Shown: in pieces, positions 33,875 through 38,194 of the stretch | Numbering within the stretch: position 1 is the first letter of the stretch | Layout: every line of letters starts with the position of its first letter | Virus record (IMG/VR): IMGVR_UViG_2541047834_000005 | Coordinates: 1 to 44,807 of that record | Origin: a virus | Taxonomy: Duplodnaviria; Heunggongvirae; Uroviricota; Caudoviricetes | Direction: 5' to 3' (one strand) | Length of the DNA: 44,807 bases | Made by a program: the position numbers and the translations under genes | Notes under the pieces: model-generated | Told to the model about the DNA's origin: nothing | The model's database searches: none | Seen by the model: only the letters and a program-made list of their open reading frames with translations

Positions 33875-34260
33875 TCACGCAAGGGGCGCTTATGGTTGGA
33901 ACCGCTATAGCAAGCTTTTTTGGGATGTTGGCAATCTCGACAATTTACGGCTTAGCGCATGCTTTTATTGCGAAATCTCTATCAGAAAAAATAAGCCAGG
34001 CTTGGGCGCATAGATCAGCTCGTTTCATGATTCTGGTGATCATAGCAATACAAGGGATATCTGCATTTATCCTCTATGGTTCAAGCTTATACCTGTTGTA
34101 TCAAGGCGCGACATTTACGCCTTACACCAGTGATTACGGAACGCTATACGATGGTAGTGAAGACATCTCTATGGCTTGGATTGTCTTTGGTTTATCTATG
34201 GCCGTGTCTGTTGTAGCAGACATCATTAAGGTAATTCTCGTCTTAACCTTCGCTGACTAA
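33871..34260 (+). CDS. Small polytopic membrane protein coupled to cI (rexAB position)
   Basis: 129 aa with three to four hydrophobic helices; start overlaps the cI stop; between cI and oL/pL. Confidence 0.5.
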   Translation: MITQGALMVGTAIASFFGMLAISTIYGLAHAFIAKSLSEKISQAWAHRSARFMILVIIAIQGISAFILYGSSLYLLYQGATFTPYTSDYGTLYDGSEDISMAWIVFGLSMAVSVVADIIKVILVLTFAD

Positions 34261-34346
34261 CCCATAATCCCGGCAGCAATAGCTATCGGGATCCACTTCA
34301 CATATCCCGCATAAAAAGCACTGAACAAGCAGACACCGAAAAAATA

Positions 34347-34432
34347 AATATCCTTTGTATTCATTTGCTTATCATTATTTCACCAAAAATAAATACCTTG
34401 GGTATTTACACAATAAAATACCTACAGTATTC
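34347..34432 (+). promoter_or_regulatory. oL/pL: three operator dyads (34347-34361 imperfect, 34392-34406, 34417-34431) with -35 TTTACA (34404-34409) and -10 TATTCT (34427-34432)
   Basis: Same AATAC-N5-GTATT dyad as at oR; 17-bp spacer; both hexamers overlap operators. Confidence 0.55.
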
Positions 34433-34479
34433 TTTAGCCATCAGCAGGACGCTGGAAGCCAAACGGAACAGATTGGCAG

Positions 34480-34520
34480 GCTCTTTAACATTGATGGGAT
34501 TGTCCCGCCGAAATGCGGGA
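34480..34520 (+). promoter_or_regulatory. nutL (boxA GCTCTTTAA plus boxB hairpin TCCCGCCGAAATGCGGGA)
   Basis: Same boxB as nutR, downstream of pL and upstream of N. Confidence 0.6.
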
Positions 34521-34851
34521 ACCAAAGAGTAGTTGGCTTTGGGGTGTGGTGAAGGGTTCATGGACGGGAATATGTCGCACGTAAAGCGGCGAGGCCTGCG
34601 GGACTATTGCCGAATTGAAGTCGGACGAAGCGGGTCGAAATGGGTCTCCCACCTACCACACCACCAAAGCTAATCATCTGAGGAACAGAAAATGTTAGAC
34701 ATCATGACCAACCCAATTCTCGGTGGTTTAGTTACCACATTCGCCATCTGCTTCGGTTTCACTATCTGGTCTGAAGTAGATGACTGGATGTGGGAACGCA
34801 AAAACAAATAATCATCGACACACAAGGATGTGCACCTACCCGGAGGTCAAC

Positions 34852-35157
34852 ATGACAGTAGTCATTACATATCTGGCTGACGATAACGCCAGAAATCGCC
34901 GCAGAGCACGCAGACAGGCTCAACGTGAGCAGGCAATGCAAGAACAGCGACTGGCGCGAAAAATTGCGCTAAAGCTCTCTGGTTGCGTCAGAGCAGACAA
35001 AGCAGCATCACTCGGAAGCCTTCTCTGCAAGAGGGTAGAAGAAGTCGAGCGTAAACAGAACCGTATTTACTACCGCAAGCCACGGAGTGAAATGGGTGTG
35101 ACATGCTCAGGCCGCCAGAAGCAACGCGGAAAATCAATTCCAGCTTATTACGATTGA
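34852..35157 (+). CDS. N: N-like transcription antiterminator
   Basis: Arg-rich N-terminus (NARNRRRARRQAQREQA); C-terminus GVTCSGRQKQRGKSIP resembles lambda N; GGAGG RBS; actual start inside the listed 125-aa ORF. Confidence 0.75.
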   Translation: MTVVITYLADDNARNRRRARRQAQREQAMQEQRLARKIALKLSGCVRADKAASLGSLLCKRVEEVERKQNRIYYRKPRSEMGVTCSGRQKQRGKSIPAYYD

Positions 35158-35165
35158 GGTGAGAT

Positions 35166-35417
35166 ATGGAATTTCATGAAAGTGCGATTTGTGATTTTCG
35201 CGCTAACGCAAATTCAGTAAAACCACAGCCAATTGCAGTTCTTTTTAAAACAATGGGTGCGTGGGCTGTTTTATGCTTCGCCGCTGATGACACTGACGCA
35301 AGAATGGCAATAGGCCAAGAGATGGAGATGGACCCGACAAACGATGAATTCATAATTTATGGCGCTCCATCTAATTACTTACTTGATACCTGCAACATTT
35401 ACAACAAGGCTGCCTGA
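35166..35417 (+). CDS. Hypothetical protein
   Basis: 83-aa ORF just downstream of N. Confidence 0.45.
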   Translation: MEFHESAICDFRANANSVKPQPIAVLFKTMGAWAVLCFAADDTDARMAIGQEMEMDPTNDEFIIYGAPSNYLLDTCNIYNKAA

Positions 35418-35456
35418 CGGTGGCTTTTATTTTTGGCATAAACAACAGAGGCTAAC

Positions 35457-35747
35457 ATGGAATTTAAAGGTACTGAAGGTAAGTGGGAAATAATGATGGA
35501 TGGCGATGAGATTAAAATCATCCAGGCAGACTCACTTGAAAATGGCGCAGGCTGGCGTTCGTATATTGCAATCTGTGAGGAAGTTCAATGCATTGAAGAT
35601 GCCAATCTAATAGCGGCAGCACCTGACCTTTTAAATGCCATGAAAGCGATGCTAAACAAGGCATACAAGCAAAACTGGAATGACCATTATCCTGATGAAG
35701 TATCGAAAGCACAGTCAGCAATTAGCAAAGCTCTTGGAGATGAGTAA
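35457..35747 (+). CDS. Hypothetical protein with Ea22 N-terminal-like segment
   Basis: 96 aa; segment IAICEEVQCIEDANLIAAAPDLLNAM resembles the N-terminal region of the Ea22-like protein at 39531. Confidence 0.45.
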   Translation: MEFKGTEGKWEIMMDGDEIKIIQADSLENGAGWRSYIAICEEVQCIEDANLIAAAPDLLNAMKAMLNKAYKQNWNDHYPDEVSKAQSAISKALGDE

Positions 35748-35935
35748 TGAAAGTAAAAATAACTGCTTCTAATACCAGTTTTGTTAGTGTTGGTGATATT
35801 ACAGAAATAATAACAAACCATGATGAAACACAAGTTATGTGGTCTGATTTCTGTAAAAGATATGAGCGAGTTAGTTGGTGTGAAAACGTATGGGGCGTCG
35901 AATACGAAGAATTACCTGAAATGCATGACGAATAA
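35747..35935 (+). CDS. Hypothetical protein
   Basis: 62 aa; ATGA-type overlap with the upstream ORF. Confidence 0.4.
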   Translation: MKVKITASNTSFVSVGDITEIITNHDETQVMWSDFCKRYERVSWCENVWGVEYEELPEMHDE

Positions 35936-36070
35936 GCACTGTGTATTCATTCCAACGAGTGAATACACGGAGCAATGTCGCTCGTAACTAAACAGGAGCC
36001 GACTTGTTCTGATTATTGGAAATCTTCTTTGCCCTCCAGTGTGAGGGCAATTTTTTTTGATGGAGGATAT

Positions 36071-37039
36071 ATGAGTGAAGTAACAGATTTAGTTGTTATT
36101 GAAAAAGCAAATGCAATGACTGTATTTCAGTCTGCCGACCAGATTGAAGAAATCCTTCAAAAGGTTGAACGTGAAGTTATGTCCTTTGTGCCTGATATCA
36201 CAACGGCAAAGGGCAGAAAGGAGATCGCTTCTCTGGCGTATAAAGTTGCGCAGACGAAAACATATCTCGATGGTCTTGGCAAAGACCTTGTTGCTGAACT
36301 GAAGGAAATTCCAAAGCTAATTGATGCTAACCGCAAGACAGTGCGTGATCGCCTTGATGAGCTGAAAGCCAAGGCACGCCAGCCTCTTACTGATTATGAG
36401 GAAGAACAGGCACGGATTAAAGCCGAAGAAGAAGCTAAGGCAGCAGCTGAAGCTCTCGCAAAGCAAATTGAGTCTGACCATGAAATAGCGATTTTGATGG
36501 ATCGCGAATTTGACCGCCAAAGAGAAGAGGCAAGACTCAAAGCGGAGCAGGAAAAGCGAGAGCATGAAGAACGCTTAAAAAGAGAAGCTGAAGAGAAAGC
36601 CAGAGCAGAAGCCGAAGCAAAGGCAAAAGCCGAAATTGAAGCAGCAGCAAGGCGAGAAGCAGAAGCTAAGGCCGCAGCGGAACGTGCAGAGCGTGAACGC
36701 ATTGAAGCCGAGCAACGAGCACAGCGCGAAGCAAAAGAGGCAGCAGAACGAGCTGAAAGAGAAAAGCAGGCGGCAATTGAAGCAGAACGCCGAAAAGCAC
36801 AGGAGGAGGCTGAACGAATCAGGCGCGAGGCTGAAGCAAAAGAGCAAGCCAGAATAGCAGAAGAAAAAAGAATCAAGGAAGAAGAAGAGCGTAGAGCAAA
36901 GGATAAAGCTCACCGGAAAGAAGTAAATAACAAAATACTTGCTGACCTTATCAAGGTTGGCGCATCAGAAGATGTTGCTAAAAATATCATAACAGCCATC
37001 GTAAAAGGCGAAGTATTCGCAACAAAAATAACCTACTAA
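36071..37039 (+). CDS. Hypothetical protein with long charged E/A/K/R-rich coiled-coil
   Basis: Start at ATG 36071 preceded by GGAGG; central ~180 residues are almost pure EAKR repeats; globular N- and C-terminal regions. Confidence 0.6.
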   Translation: MSEVTDLVVIEKANAMTVFQSADQIEEILQKVEREVMSFVPDITTAKGRKEIASLAYKVAQTKTYLDGLGKDLVAELKEIPKLIDANRKTVRDRLDELKAKARQPLTDYEEEQARIKAEEEAKAAAEALAKQIESDHEIAILMDREFDRQREEARLKAEQEKREHEERLKREAEEKARAEAEAKAKAEIEAAARREAEAKAAAERAERERIEAEQRAQREAKEAAERAEREKQAAIEAERRKAQEEAERIRREAEAKEQARIAEEKRIKEEEERRAKDKAHRKEVNNKILADLIKVGASEDVAKNIITAIVKGEVFATKITY

Positions 37040-37063
37040 TAAAACCAACATAAGGAACCACCC

Positions 37064-37195
37064 ATGATTTACGCAATCGCGGGAGGCGCTCGCATGGGTG
37101 CCTTCCAACTAAATGAATCTTTACTTGAACGAATCACCCGTAAATTACGTGACGGATGGAAAAGAGTTGAGGTCTTATTATGCGCAATGAAATAG
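37064..37195 (+). CDS. cIII: cIII-like protease inhibitor
   Basis: 43 aa; ESLLERITRKLRDGWKR matches the lambda cIII core. Confidence 0.75.
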   Translation: MIYAIAGGARMGAFQLNESLLERITRKLRDGWKRVEVLLCAMK

Positions 37196-37332
37196 CCATC
37201 AATCACCAGATGCTTCGTGCTGCACAAAACAAAGCAGTAATAGCCAGATTTATTGGTGATTCAAAAATGTGGCTTGAAGCAAATAAAGCGATGAAATCAG
37301 CTATCAACCTTCCGTGGTATCGCAGGAAATGA
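37180..37332 (+). CDS. Kil-like small protein (possible cell division inhibitor)
   Basis: 50 aa directly after cIII; IARFIGDSKMWLEANKAM segment is reminiscent of Kil. Confidence 0.4.
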   Translation: MRNEIAINHQMLRAAQNKAVIARFIGDSKMWLEANKAMKSAINLPWYRRK

Positions 37333-37499
37333 GTTTTACAGATAACTGGTCAGACGAAGAATTCATTCGTCAGATGAAAGAATTAATCGGTAACGAAGGA
37401 GATATTCATGTCACTTGCAACCACAGTGAAGGAGAGCAAGTTACAGAGACGCATGTACACGCAGCAGGCGTTAATGTATCGCCAGAAGGGAGATCGTGA
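37329..37499 (+). CDS. Small hypothetical protein
   Basis: Internal start MSFTDNWSDEEFIRQMKE... within the listed 61-aa ORF; position upstream of erf. Confidence 0.3.
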   Translation: MSFTDNWSDEEFIRQMKELIGNEGDIHVTCNHSEGEQVTETHVHAAGVNVSPEGRS

Positions 37500-37588
37500 A
37501 GGTGTTCGCGTATTTTTGAATGCGGCAAAGACTGAAGTATTAAATCAGCGTTATTTCCTTGGGCCATGTCCATTCTGAGAACAATCAT

Positions 37589-38194
37589 ATGAGCAAAGAA
37601 TTTTACGCAAGACTGGCAGCTATTCAGGAGAATCTGAACGCGCCAAAGAATCAGTACAACTCATTCGGCAAATATAAATACAGAAGCTGCGAAGACATTC
37701 TTGAAGGCGTTAAGCCGTTACTGAATGGCCTGTTTTTATCAATCAGCGATGAAGTTGTGTTGATTGGTGATCGGTATTACGTGAAAGCCACGGCAACTAT
37801 TACCGATGGCGAAAACAGTCATACGGCAACCGCTCTTGCACGAGAGGAAGAAAGCAAGAAAGGAATGGATTCTGCACAAGTTACGGGAGCTACAAGCTCT
37901 TATGCACGCAAGTATTGCCTCAATGGTTTGTTCGGCATTGATGATGCGAAAGATGCAGATACAGACGAGCATAAACATCAGCAGAACGCAGCAGCAAAGC
38001 AATCAAAGCCATCACCTACACCTGAACAGGTTCTAAAAGCATTCACTGACGCAGCAATGCAGAAAAACACCGTAGAAGAGCTTAAACAGGCGTTCGCCAA
38101 AGCGTGGAAGATGCTCGAAGGCACACCGGAGCAGCACAAAGCGCAGGGCGTTTACAACATCAGACGAGACGAATTAGAAGGAGCGGCTGCTTAA
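37589..38194 (+). CDS. erf: Erf-family single-strand annealing protein (P22 Erf-like)
   Basis: MSKEFYARLAAIQENLNAPKNQYNSFGKYKYRSCEDILEGVKPLL... matches P22 Erf closely as I recall it. Confidence 0.85.
   Translation: MSKEFYARLAAIQENLNAPKNQYNSFGKYKYRSCEDILEGVKPLLNGLFLSISDEVVLIGDRYYVKATATITDGENSHTATALAREEESKKGMDSAQVTGATSSYARKYCLNGLFGIDDAKDADTDEHKHQQNAAAKQSKPSPTPEQVLKAFTDAAMQKNTVEELKQAFAKAWKMLEGTPEQHKAQGVYNIRRDELEGAAA

Follow-up and report, generated by a model that had tools for sequence, protein, structure and literature searches.

Among the described relatives of the protein reported here, function has been recorded for one only, Agt of phage phi80 (Lula): the RefSeq record of this phage (NC_021190; protein YP_007947961) lists agt as 'anti-toxin for Gam; Mog (modifier of Gam)' and the adjacent gamL as 'toxic without Mog', in both cases as GenBank annotation only. 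In mEp213, mEp043, mEp234, IME10 (Orf53), CUS-3, HK544 and Sf101, the same gene is annotated as encoding hypothetical proteins. Here, we analysed a member of this family in the IMG/VR virus record IMGVR_UViG_2541047834_000005, of which the whole stretch of 44,807 nucleotides (nt) is called the window below. The gene (positions 36071 to 37039) encodes a protein of 322 amino acids (aa) that is 51% identical to phi80 Agt over all 322 aa (E-value (E) 4e-65) and that we call the rod protein, after the long helix between its two conserved ends. Arguing from its architecture, the phased length of that helix and the genes beside it, we tentatively propose, with a confidence that falls slightly short of even, that the rod protein serves the recombination module of the phage as an accessory or adaptor.

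The gene and the parts of its product are as follows.

36071..37039, + strand: rod-protein gene (322 aa; stop codon 37037-37039), orthologue of Sf6 gene 33, mEp213/IME10 Orf53 and phi80 Agt
36062..36067, + strand: Shine-Dalgarno sequence GGAGGA, 3 nt upstream of the ATG at 36071, read from the sequence
36071..36391, + strand: conserved N-terminal domain, residues 1-107, from alignments and a match to phrog_17211 (E 2.2e-75)
36392..36919, + strand: E/A/K/R-rich helical rod, residues 108-283, from composition, a spectral peak at 3.68 residues, an 11-mer register and AlphaFold
36470..36520, + strand: conserved rod motif ESDHEIAILMDREFDRQ, residues 134-150, from alignments
36902..37036, + strand: conserved C-terminal domain, residues 278-322, comprising D278-x-x-H281-R/K, a short helical unit and an I/F-x-Y/F tail

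A longer in-frame version of the open reading frame (ORF) begins at an ATG at 35975; we place the start at 36071 because the N-termini of the homologues are conserved there, all of them sharing the beginning MSEVTDLVVIEK. Alignment of the phage proteins from E. coli (Escherichia coli), Klebsiella, Pseudomonas, Vibrio, Iodobacter, Sinorhizobium and Acinetobacter revealed the same three-part architecture throughout, with a middle helix of variable length, and full-length members measure 303-429 aa (median 331, 101 diverse members). The ends, which a preliminary description made from the sequence alone had called small and globular, are both conserved domains in these alignments. Conserved positions of the N-terminal domain are L7, F19, D42, T45, G48, R49, V59, K63, G70, K71, K78, D85, R88, L95, R103, P105, L106 and E110, six of the 18 being Lys or Arg; R49, G70 and R88 are invariant in the 101 sequences, and D42, T45, G48, K63, K71, K78, R103, P105 and E110 are conserved in at least 90% of them. 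The signature VPDxSTxKGR ... KTxLD..GK ... RxPLTxWE is present in the window protein. Judged by sequence, the invariant Lys and Arg residues of this domain suggest a possible contact with nucleic acid. At the other end, H281 is invariant and D278 nearly so, and 98 of the 101 representatives terminate in Y or F. The rod carries a DHE-type signature (DHE or [DE]H[ED][ILMF]A) in 29 of the 76 representatives in which both end anchors were located, and the motif at residues 134-150 is doubled in the Klebsiella and phi80 forms and lost in a 245-aa deletion allele described below.

The central segment is helical and charged, as the preliminary description had stated: residues 150-283 consist of 30% E, 26% A, 19% R and 12% K, with 6% large hydrophobic residues and no Pro or Gly, and AlphaFold predicts a long helix. 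The heptad-like repeats proposed in the same description did not withstand analysis. In each of the seven possible heptad registers, at most 15% of the a/d positions are large hydrophobic residues and 48-65% are charged, and the hydrophobicity power spectrum of the window-protein linker contains a sole sharp peak at 3.68 residues (11/3; power 58.9 against a background of about 10). The mean spectrum of 97 family linkers has the same 3.68 peak (z of about 9-10 against shuffles), and no periodicity appears at 3.5 residues (z = -2.3). A classical heptad coiled coil was therefore rejected. The 11-mer unit can be seen by eye as approximately E-R-A-E-R-E-A-K-A-A-A, for example in ERAERERIEAE, QRAQREAKEAA and ERAEREKQAAI, and its register places Ala or Ile at positions 2, 6, 9 and 10 and Glu or Gln at position 0. 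The apolar stripe of an 11/3 repeat runs almost straight, as is typical of bundles that are non-supercoiled or slightly right-handed and not of classical left-handed coiled coils. Opposite-charge pairs at i+3/i+4 amount to 0.57 per residue in the rod.

The length of the helix obeys the same period. We measured the spacing between the conserved Pro (P105) and the conserved Asp (D278) in 97 representatives, where it ranges from 60 to 260 residues and mostly lies between 133 and 217. Taken modulo 11, the spacing falls into classes 8, 1 and 4 in 73 of the 97 representatives (26 expected), and when only distinct lengths are counted, in 20 of 39 (p = 0.001), with the reservation that these sequences are related and not fully independent. 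The three classes lie 4-3-4 residues apart, that is, at whole helical turns, and a Rayleigh scan returned a dominant period of 3.63 residues (R 0.70 for all representatives and 0.52 for distinct lengths; null maxima 0.32 and 0.49, respectively). Natural insertions and deletions obey this whole-turn rule as well, whether they involve 77 residues (7 x 11), 11 residues, or two compensating steps of 11. The last case separates the window protein from phi80 Agt, which differs by 11 residues more near position 126 and 11 fewer near position 246 in phi80, such that the total of 322 aa is kept. Since the spacing is phased at about 3.63 residues, the two ends hold a fixed angular relation. Length change in whole turns only argues for a continuous rigid helix with the end domains at a fixed azimuth; if fully extended, 173 residues would span about 26 nm.

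Structure prediction, done for the monomer only, agrees with a largely helical protein. The deep AlphaFold model, built on 101 sequences (mean predicted local distance difference test (pLDDT) score 85), contains helices at residues 12-20, 22-38, 46-172 and 183-295, with the N-terminal domain predicted helical at pLDDT 83-91 and the C-terminal domain at pLDDT 91-97. A shallow model from nine sequences predicts one unbroken helix from 108 to 295. Neither the whole protein, nor either end domain, nor any of the 101 relatives matched a Pfam, NCBIfam or PADLOC family other than by chance hits to helical proteins, and a sequence search of solved structures in the PDB gave compositional matches only (best E 0.018), meaning that these databases yielded no characterised structural or scaffolding protein as a homologue.

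The family is large and keeps constant company. A search with residues 1-150 against 1.84 billion cluster representatives (clustered at 50% identity) retrieved 5050 clusters at E <= 1e-3 and 3618 at E <= 1e-10. The order of genes around the family member, denoted X, in seven annotated phages is listed here.

D3: X-Erf-YqaJ exonuclease
phiLM21: X-Erf-exonuclease-NinB
PhiPLPE: RecE-Bet-X-RdgC
Vibrio 1.132.O: Erf-hypothetical-X
Acinetobacter phi5013-M1: X-RecT-like-Exo
Mulock: kil-X-GamL-Bet-Exo
phi80: X-GamL-RecT-Exo

Six of the seven have intergenic gaps of 1-17 nt; in Vibrio 1.132.O the gap measures 60 nt. We then examined 172 loci, each followed by 2.5 kb of sequence or more: eight annotated phages together with loci that searches of IMG/VR with the window protein, D3 orf53 and phiLM21 p010 had returned. 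They form a redundant set of three clades plus the annotated phages. A seed-based search of all + strand ORFs located a same-strand annealing-recombinase gene at 169 of the 172 loci; in 168 of them it follows the rod-protein gene within 2 kb, and in one it precedes it by about 0.4 kb. The distances of D3-type loci near 1.8 kb are an artefact, as the longest recombinase ORF overlaps the end of the rod-protein gene there. The recombinase belongs to the Erf type at 110 loci, RecT at 49, Sak4 at six and Bet at four. Furthermore, among seven distant metagenomic representatives with Pfam-labelled neighbours, examined as an independent check, the contigs of three were too short, and all four contigs that could be judged have an Erf, YqaJ exonuclease or Sak4-type AAA_24 gene adjacent or within 2 kb. 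The orders met there are ERF-X (adjacent), X-AAA_24 (Sak4-type, adjacent), YqaJ followed by a 186-aa gene and X, and Erf-YqaJ lying 2 kb upstream of X. In one distant metagenomic relative (L193, JGI 3300031692), a DUF3127 gene (2718-3056) lies immediately upstream of the family member, with Erf-YqaJ 2 kb further upstream. A recombinase adjacent or within about 2 kb in phages of E. coli, Klebsiella, Pseudomonas, Acinetobacter, Vibrio, Iodobacter and Sinorhizobium and in metagenomic contigs, in a family of 5050 clusters, does not agree with a sporadic gene for host interaction or exclusion, of the ral/sieB type that the preliminary description had considered. Within E. coli, the same 99%-identical allele is joined to Erf, Rad52-type, RecT or Sak4 modules, and it is therefore not specific to one recombinase.

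How might such a protein work? In the reading that we tentatively favour, it would be made as an early pL-operon protein, encoded by the first gene past a tL2-type terminator and read via N antitermination, and a stiff rod of 11-residue repeats would present the two conserved end domains in fixed register. The rod protein would act alongside the single-strand-annealing recombinase, with or without an exonuclease, an SSB and an anti-RecBCD protein, as a structural adaptor or modulator whose two ends contact DNA or module proteins at a set spacing, and DNA-end-processing proteins may be localised or tempered by it. Relief of GamL toxicity, as annotated for phi80 Agt, could then be one expression of this general role. 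The gene, its architecture, the 11-residue periodicity, the phased spacing, the size of the family and the synteny are shown by the analysis, whereas how the protein oligomerises, what it binds and whether it takes part in recombination are inferences. A broader claim, which we regard as possible though doubtful, holds that the Agt/gp33 family is an unrecognised, near-universal accessory of annealing modules in proteobacterial phages, a counterpart of DUF1351, and that the rod serves as a ruler or tether; as replication proceeds by recombination, it would keep DNA ends, recombinase or SSB filaments, or nuclease inhibitors at a set distance and in a set orientation.

Several observations weigh against an adaptor of the recombination module. 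Fold searches returned no solved or named relative, and in neither end domain did a DNA- or protein-binding fold emerge. The shallow and deep AlphaFold models differ, the former giving a single helix and the latter a low-confidence break at residues 172-183, which leaves room for either a straight rod or an antiparallel hairpin. The redundancy of the 172 loci and the small number of metagenomic contigs, three of seven being too short, belong here too, as does one metagenomic contig with only small unlabelled genes downstream of the rod-protein gene. In the E. coli lambdoid group, the window included, cIII, kil and a small ORF intervene before Erf. In addition, a 2025 survey of the recombination modules of 325 lambdoid phages does not name the gene in the passages searched, its section on possible additional module proteins included, and our literature searches found no study of the rod protein.

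Two explanations compete most directly with a general role in the recombination module, and we consider both unlikely. According to one, the protein is a dedicated antitoxin or modifier of the anti-RecBCD protein (GamL in phi80, Abc2 in the window) that binds the inhibitor, keeps it from harming the host too much and has no wider part in recombination. The wording of the phi80 records for agt and gamL, together with the identity between Agt and the window protein, speaks for it, as do the loci at which the gene abuts GamL (phi80, Mulock, L069, L078, L083 and L087) and the presence of Abc2 downstream in the window and at 50 of the 172 loci. However, Abc2 or GamL was found at 56 of the 172 loci, leaving 116 with neither (the seeds excluded lambda Gam and Mu Gam, and some inhibitors may have been missed), and the copies of D3, phiLM21, PhiPLPE and the Acinetobacter phage abut recombinase and exonuclease genes instead; a 26-nm, phase-locked rod with two conserved ends would also seem over-elaborate for a stoichiometric antitoxin. 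The other explanation, about as improbable, treats the gene as a pL accessory gene for host interaction, exclusion or take-over, targeting a host structure (the nucleoid, the division machinery or a defence system, for instance), with its proximity to recombination genes being incidental. The gene does lie in the mosaic region between N and cIII-kil, and E. coli phages keep X-cIII-kil constant while the downstream recombination module varies; moreover, a prophage region with a frameshifted copy in UTI89 scored in a filamentation screen, but the effect was attributed to kil. Accessory 'moron' genes are generally sporadic, whereas the present family, with over 3600 clusters at E <= 1e-10, stays next to recombinase genes in unrelated lineages that have no cIII or kil, a cross-phylum synteny that incidental proximity fits poorly, and no PADLOC defence-system model matches the protein.

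Two further readings concern what the protein is related to. Most RefSeq and GenBank records name it as a TolA-like cell-envelope protein ('cell envelope biogenesis protein TolA'), in keeping with its similar Ala/Lys/Glu-rich helix, and we find this scarcely credible. The NCBIfam model TIGR02794 (tolA_full) scores 8.6 bits against a cut-off of 59.45; neither the rod protein nor any of its 101 relatives contains a Pfam TolA domain, residues 277-322 matching no Pfam family at E <= 10; no transmembrane segment is present, the highest 19-residue Kyte-Doolittle mean (1.03) lying in the C-terminal domain; and the gene belongs to a phage early operon. With the model score, the membrane anchor and domain III all failing, TolA is effectively refuted and the name is a compositional artefact. 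A tail-fibre function, taken from the PhiPLPE annotation, was likewise rejected on the position of the gene in the early operon. The remaining possibility, complementary to an accessory role in recombination and in our judgement quite unlikely, is that the family is a very distant homologue of DUF1351 of Firmicutes phages, both descending from one ancient recombination-module family. The two are alike in size (319-364 aa for DUF1351 against 303-429 aa), in having a central charged helix and in being encoded next to Erf, Sak, RecT or Sak4, and the N-terminal ~95 residues run colinear in a single hhalign alignment. That alignment, however, has a probability of 0.35% and an E of 0.17, obtained with a DUF1351 profile of nine sequences only, shallow as it is given that a search from the phage 7201 protein returned only relatives at least 74% identical; none of the 101 members matches PF07083 at E <= 1, nor does the window protein, and the C-terminal region of DUF1351 is different and has no terminal I-x-Y tail. 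Homology to DUF1351 was thus rejected at the sequence level, and common gene context is not evidence of homology.

If the link of the rod protein to recombination is functional, the family would be a candidate for a missing accessory factor of phage recombination and recombineering systems, and if the ruler or tether reading holds, its omission could partly explain why recombinases transfer poorly between hosts in recombineering. Regardless of function, a very large family with neither a Pfam model nor a solved structure is consistently encoded next to Erf, RecT, Bet or Sak4 in alpha-, beta- and gamma-proteobacterial phages, and the TolA label, which is wrong, has been propagated by automated annotation. 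The linker is a clear natural example of a helix whose length varies by whole turns, often in steps of 11 residues, which implies a rigid rod and a required orientation of its ends.

In the window, the rod-protein gene is surrounded by the following features.

34780-35157: gene for an N-like antiterminator, upstream (phrog_271, E 5e-36; a weak match to Pfam N_peptide)
36029..36060, + strand: intrinsic-terminator-like hairpin TTGCCCTC-CAGTGT-GAGGGCAA followed by T8, about 10 nt 5' of the start codon
37064..37195, + strand: cIII, downstream neighbour in the same operon (Pfam Lambda_CIII, E 4e-15)
37180..37332, + strand: kil (Pfam Lambda_Kil, E 1.7e-20)
37314-37499: 61-aa ORF overlapping the end of kil, just 5' of Erf (phrog_2123, labelled 'recombinase')
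37589..38194, + strand: Erf-family single-strand-annealing recombinase (Pfam ERF, E 2.1e-44)
38194..38577, + strand: SSB-like protein of the recombination module (phrog_44, E 2.9e-27)
38601..38894, + strand: Abc2 anti-RecBCD protein (phrog_656, E 2.6e-55)

The matches to phrog_271 and Lambda_CIII confirm the placement of the ORF (36071-37039, + strand, 322 aa) between N and cIII that the preliminary description had given, and three small ORFs of unknown function also lie upstream. The hairpin at 36029-36060 is strong, with an 8-bp stem containing five GC pairs and the tail TTTTTTTTGA. Its counterpart in Sf6 is the terminator tL2A, annotated immediately 5' of gene 33; as the rod-protein gene is the first past a tL2-type terminator, we infer that it requires N antitermination. 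The hairpin thereby implies delayed-early, N-dependent expression of the rod-protein gene together with cIII, kil and the entire recombination module. Its position also speaks against the idea that the gene fills a slot for ral- or sieB-type functions: in Sf6 the ral-like slot lies upstream of tL2A, and the rod-protein gene comes first after it. A second inverted repeat (35936-35973; 17-nt arms, 82% complementary, 4-nt loop, no T-run) directly follows the stop codon of a 62-aa ORF at 35747-35935. No Rfam family matched at E <= 0.1 across 34000-38600, and an RNA element in or around the gene was rejected. The 61-aa ORF occupies what we take to be the position of the small accessory recombination gene Arf in P22.

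The rod-protein gene, cIII and kil form a constant block (X-cIII-kil) that was seen joined to at least four types of recombinase gene, namely ERF (PF04404), Rad52-type (PF04098), RecT and Sak4, the last with a DUF669-like SSB (loci L009-L088 and L188-L190), and a recombination breakpoint appears to lie just 3' of kil. Further along the early-left region, different segments of the ORFs at 39531-40220 and 40416-41129 match many distinct PHROG families of unknown function, which suggests that both encode highly mosaic, multi-module proteins.

At the DNA level, the coding sequence is biased: the sense strand of 36521-36900 contains 43% A, 33% G and 5.5% T. Because T is scarce on this strand, stop trinucleotides are nearly absent from the antisense strand, which accounts for shadow ORFs of 160, 112 and 82 aa on the - strand, alongside an out-of-frame one of 73 aa on the + strand. 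The shadow ORFs mentioned in the preliminary description therefore exist, but the highly repetitive DNA to which it attributed them does not: Tandem Repeats Finder reported a weak 6-nt periodicity (63% matches) and a two-copy 15-mer only, and tandem-repeat DNA was rejected on this weak output. Direct repeats of 27-37 nt with 70-89% identity do occur within the gene, two of which concern us here.

36425..36451, + strand: 27-nt direct repeat, left copy GAAGAAGAAGCTAAGGCAGCAGCTGAA, encoding EEEAKAAAE; left crossover site of a 231-nt deletion
36656..36682, + strand: 27-nt direct repeat, right copy, 89% identical, lying 3' of the left copy at a distance of 231 nt (77 codons, 7 x 11)

The anticipated proneness to length variation was borne out by this deletion and by an 11-residue duplication. 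The 245-aa allele (P0010) equals the window protein minus 77 residues and results from a clean in-frame deletion of 231 nt whose junction lies inside the 27-nt repeat pair (junction sequence in IMG/VR loci L188-L190). Because the exact 245-aa protein recurs on at least 24 contigs, in prophages with differing recombination modules, we regard the deletion as an established allele that is presumably functional. The duplication, of QREAKEAAERA, is carried by allele P0024. Frameshifted copies were found in CUS-3, IHE3034 and UTI89 (970 nt), in L071-L073 (952 nt) and in P0003, and indels of 1 nt or 14-17 nt split the gene in L071-L073, L047, L049, L055, L056, L059, CUS-3, IHE3034 and UPEC129. All the same, length variants are minority alleles in E. 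coli: 35 of 37 phage records align with the query over its whole length, and almost every one measures exactly 969 nt (970 nt in CUS-3); likewise, in 496 of the 530 positive E. coli genomes the copy covers at least 80% of the gene, the listed copies being almost all of 969 nt.

Those 530 genomes represent ~10% of the 5426 complete E. coli genomes searched, and the gene is 98-99% identical at the nt level to 35 phage records, including Sf6 gene 33, mEp213, IME10 and CUS-3. The PHROG family phrog_1376 ('unknown function') matches the rod protein over its full length (residues 1-322, E 7.8e-110). The gene is thus already catalogued, common and of ordinary sequence. The 'half-gene' families phrog_17211 and phrog_21365 in PHROGs, and the records that annotate two hypothetical proteins in its place, exist because indels break several prophage copies into two or three ORFs. 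Two short proteins, P0070 (111 aa, from E. coli) and P0114 (130 aa), combine the initial ~70-80 residues of the rod protein with other sequence, which in P0070 is the C-terminal part of Abc2 (PF11043); these chimeras probably arose when deletions within prophages took out cIII, kil, Erf and SSB.

In terms of the repeat itself, the likeness to TolA domain II, ER/K helices and hendecad coiled coils is structural only and consists in a long Ala/Glu/Lys/Arg helix, densely set with opposite-charge pairs, and an 11/3 periodicity. For an ER/K single alpha-helix the signs are mixed: the charge pattern is of that type, but a coherent, significant Ala/Ile stripe and the phased spacing of the ends set the rod apart from a pure helix of this kind. 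The rod protein possesses the coherent apolar periodicity of 3.67 residues that characterises a hendecad (11/3) coiled coil or straight bundle. DUF1351 (PF07083), which is likewise of unknown function, is usually encoded downstream of the recombinase, whereas the rod-protein gene usually lies upstream.

Among its relatives, the copies in Sf6, mEp213, IME10, CUS-3 and HK544 are the same gene as that of the window, with the same flanking terminator, cIII and kil. D3 orf53 has the N- and C-terminal domains in common with the window protein, but it is 354 aa long, possesses another helix segment that lacks the DHE motif, and is encoded directly next to Erf. The described protein with an annotated activity, phi80 Agt, resembles the rod protein in its length of 322 aa, in its three-part architecture and in the position of its gene in the pL operon upstream of the recombination genes. 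The two loci differ in what follows: phi80 agt directly abuts gamL-recT-exo, whereas the gene of the window is followed by cIII, kil, the small ORF, Erf, SSB and Abc2, without GamL.

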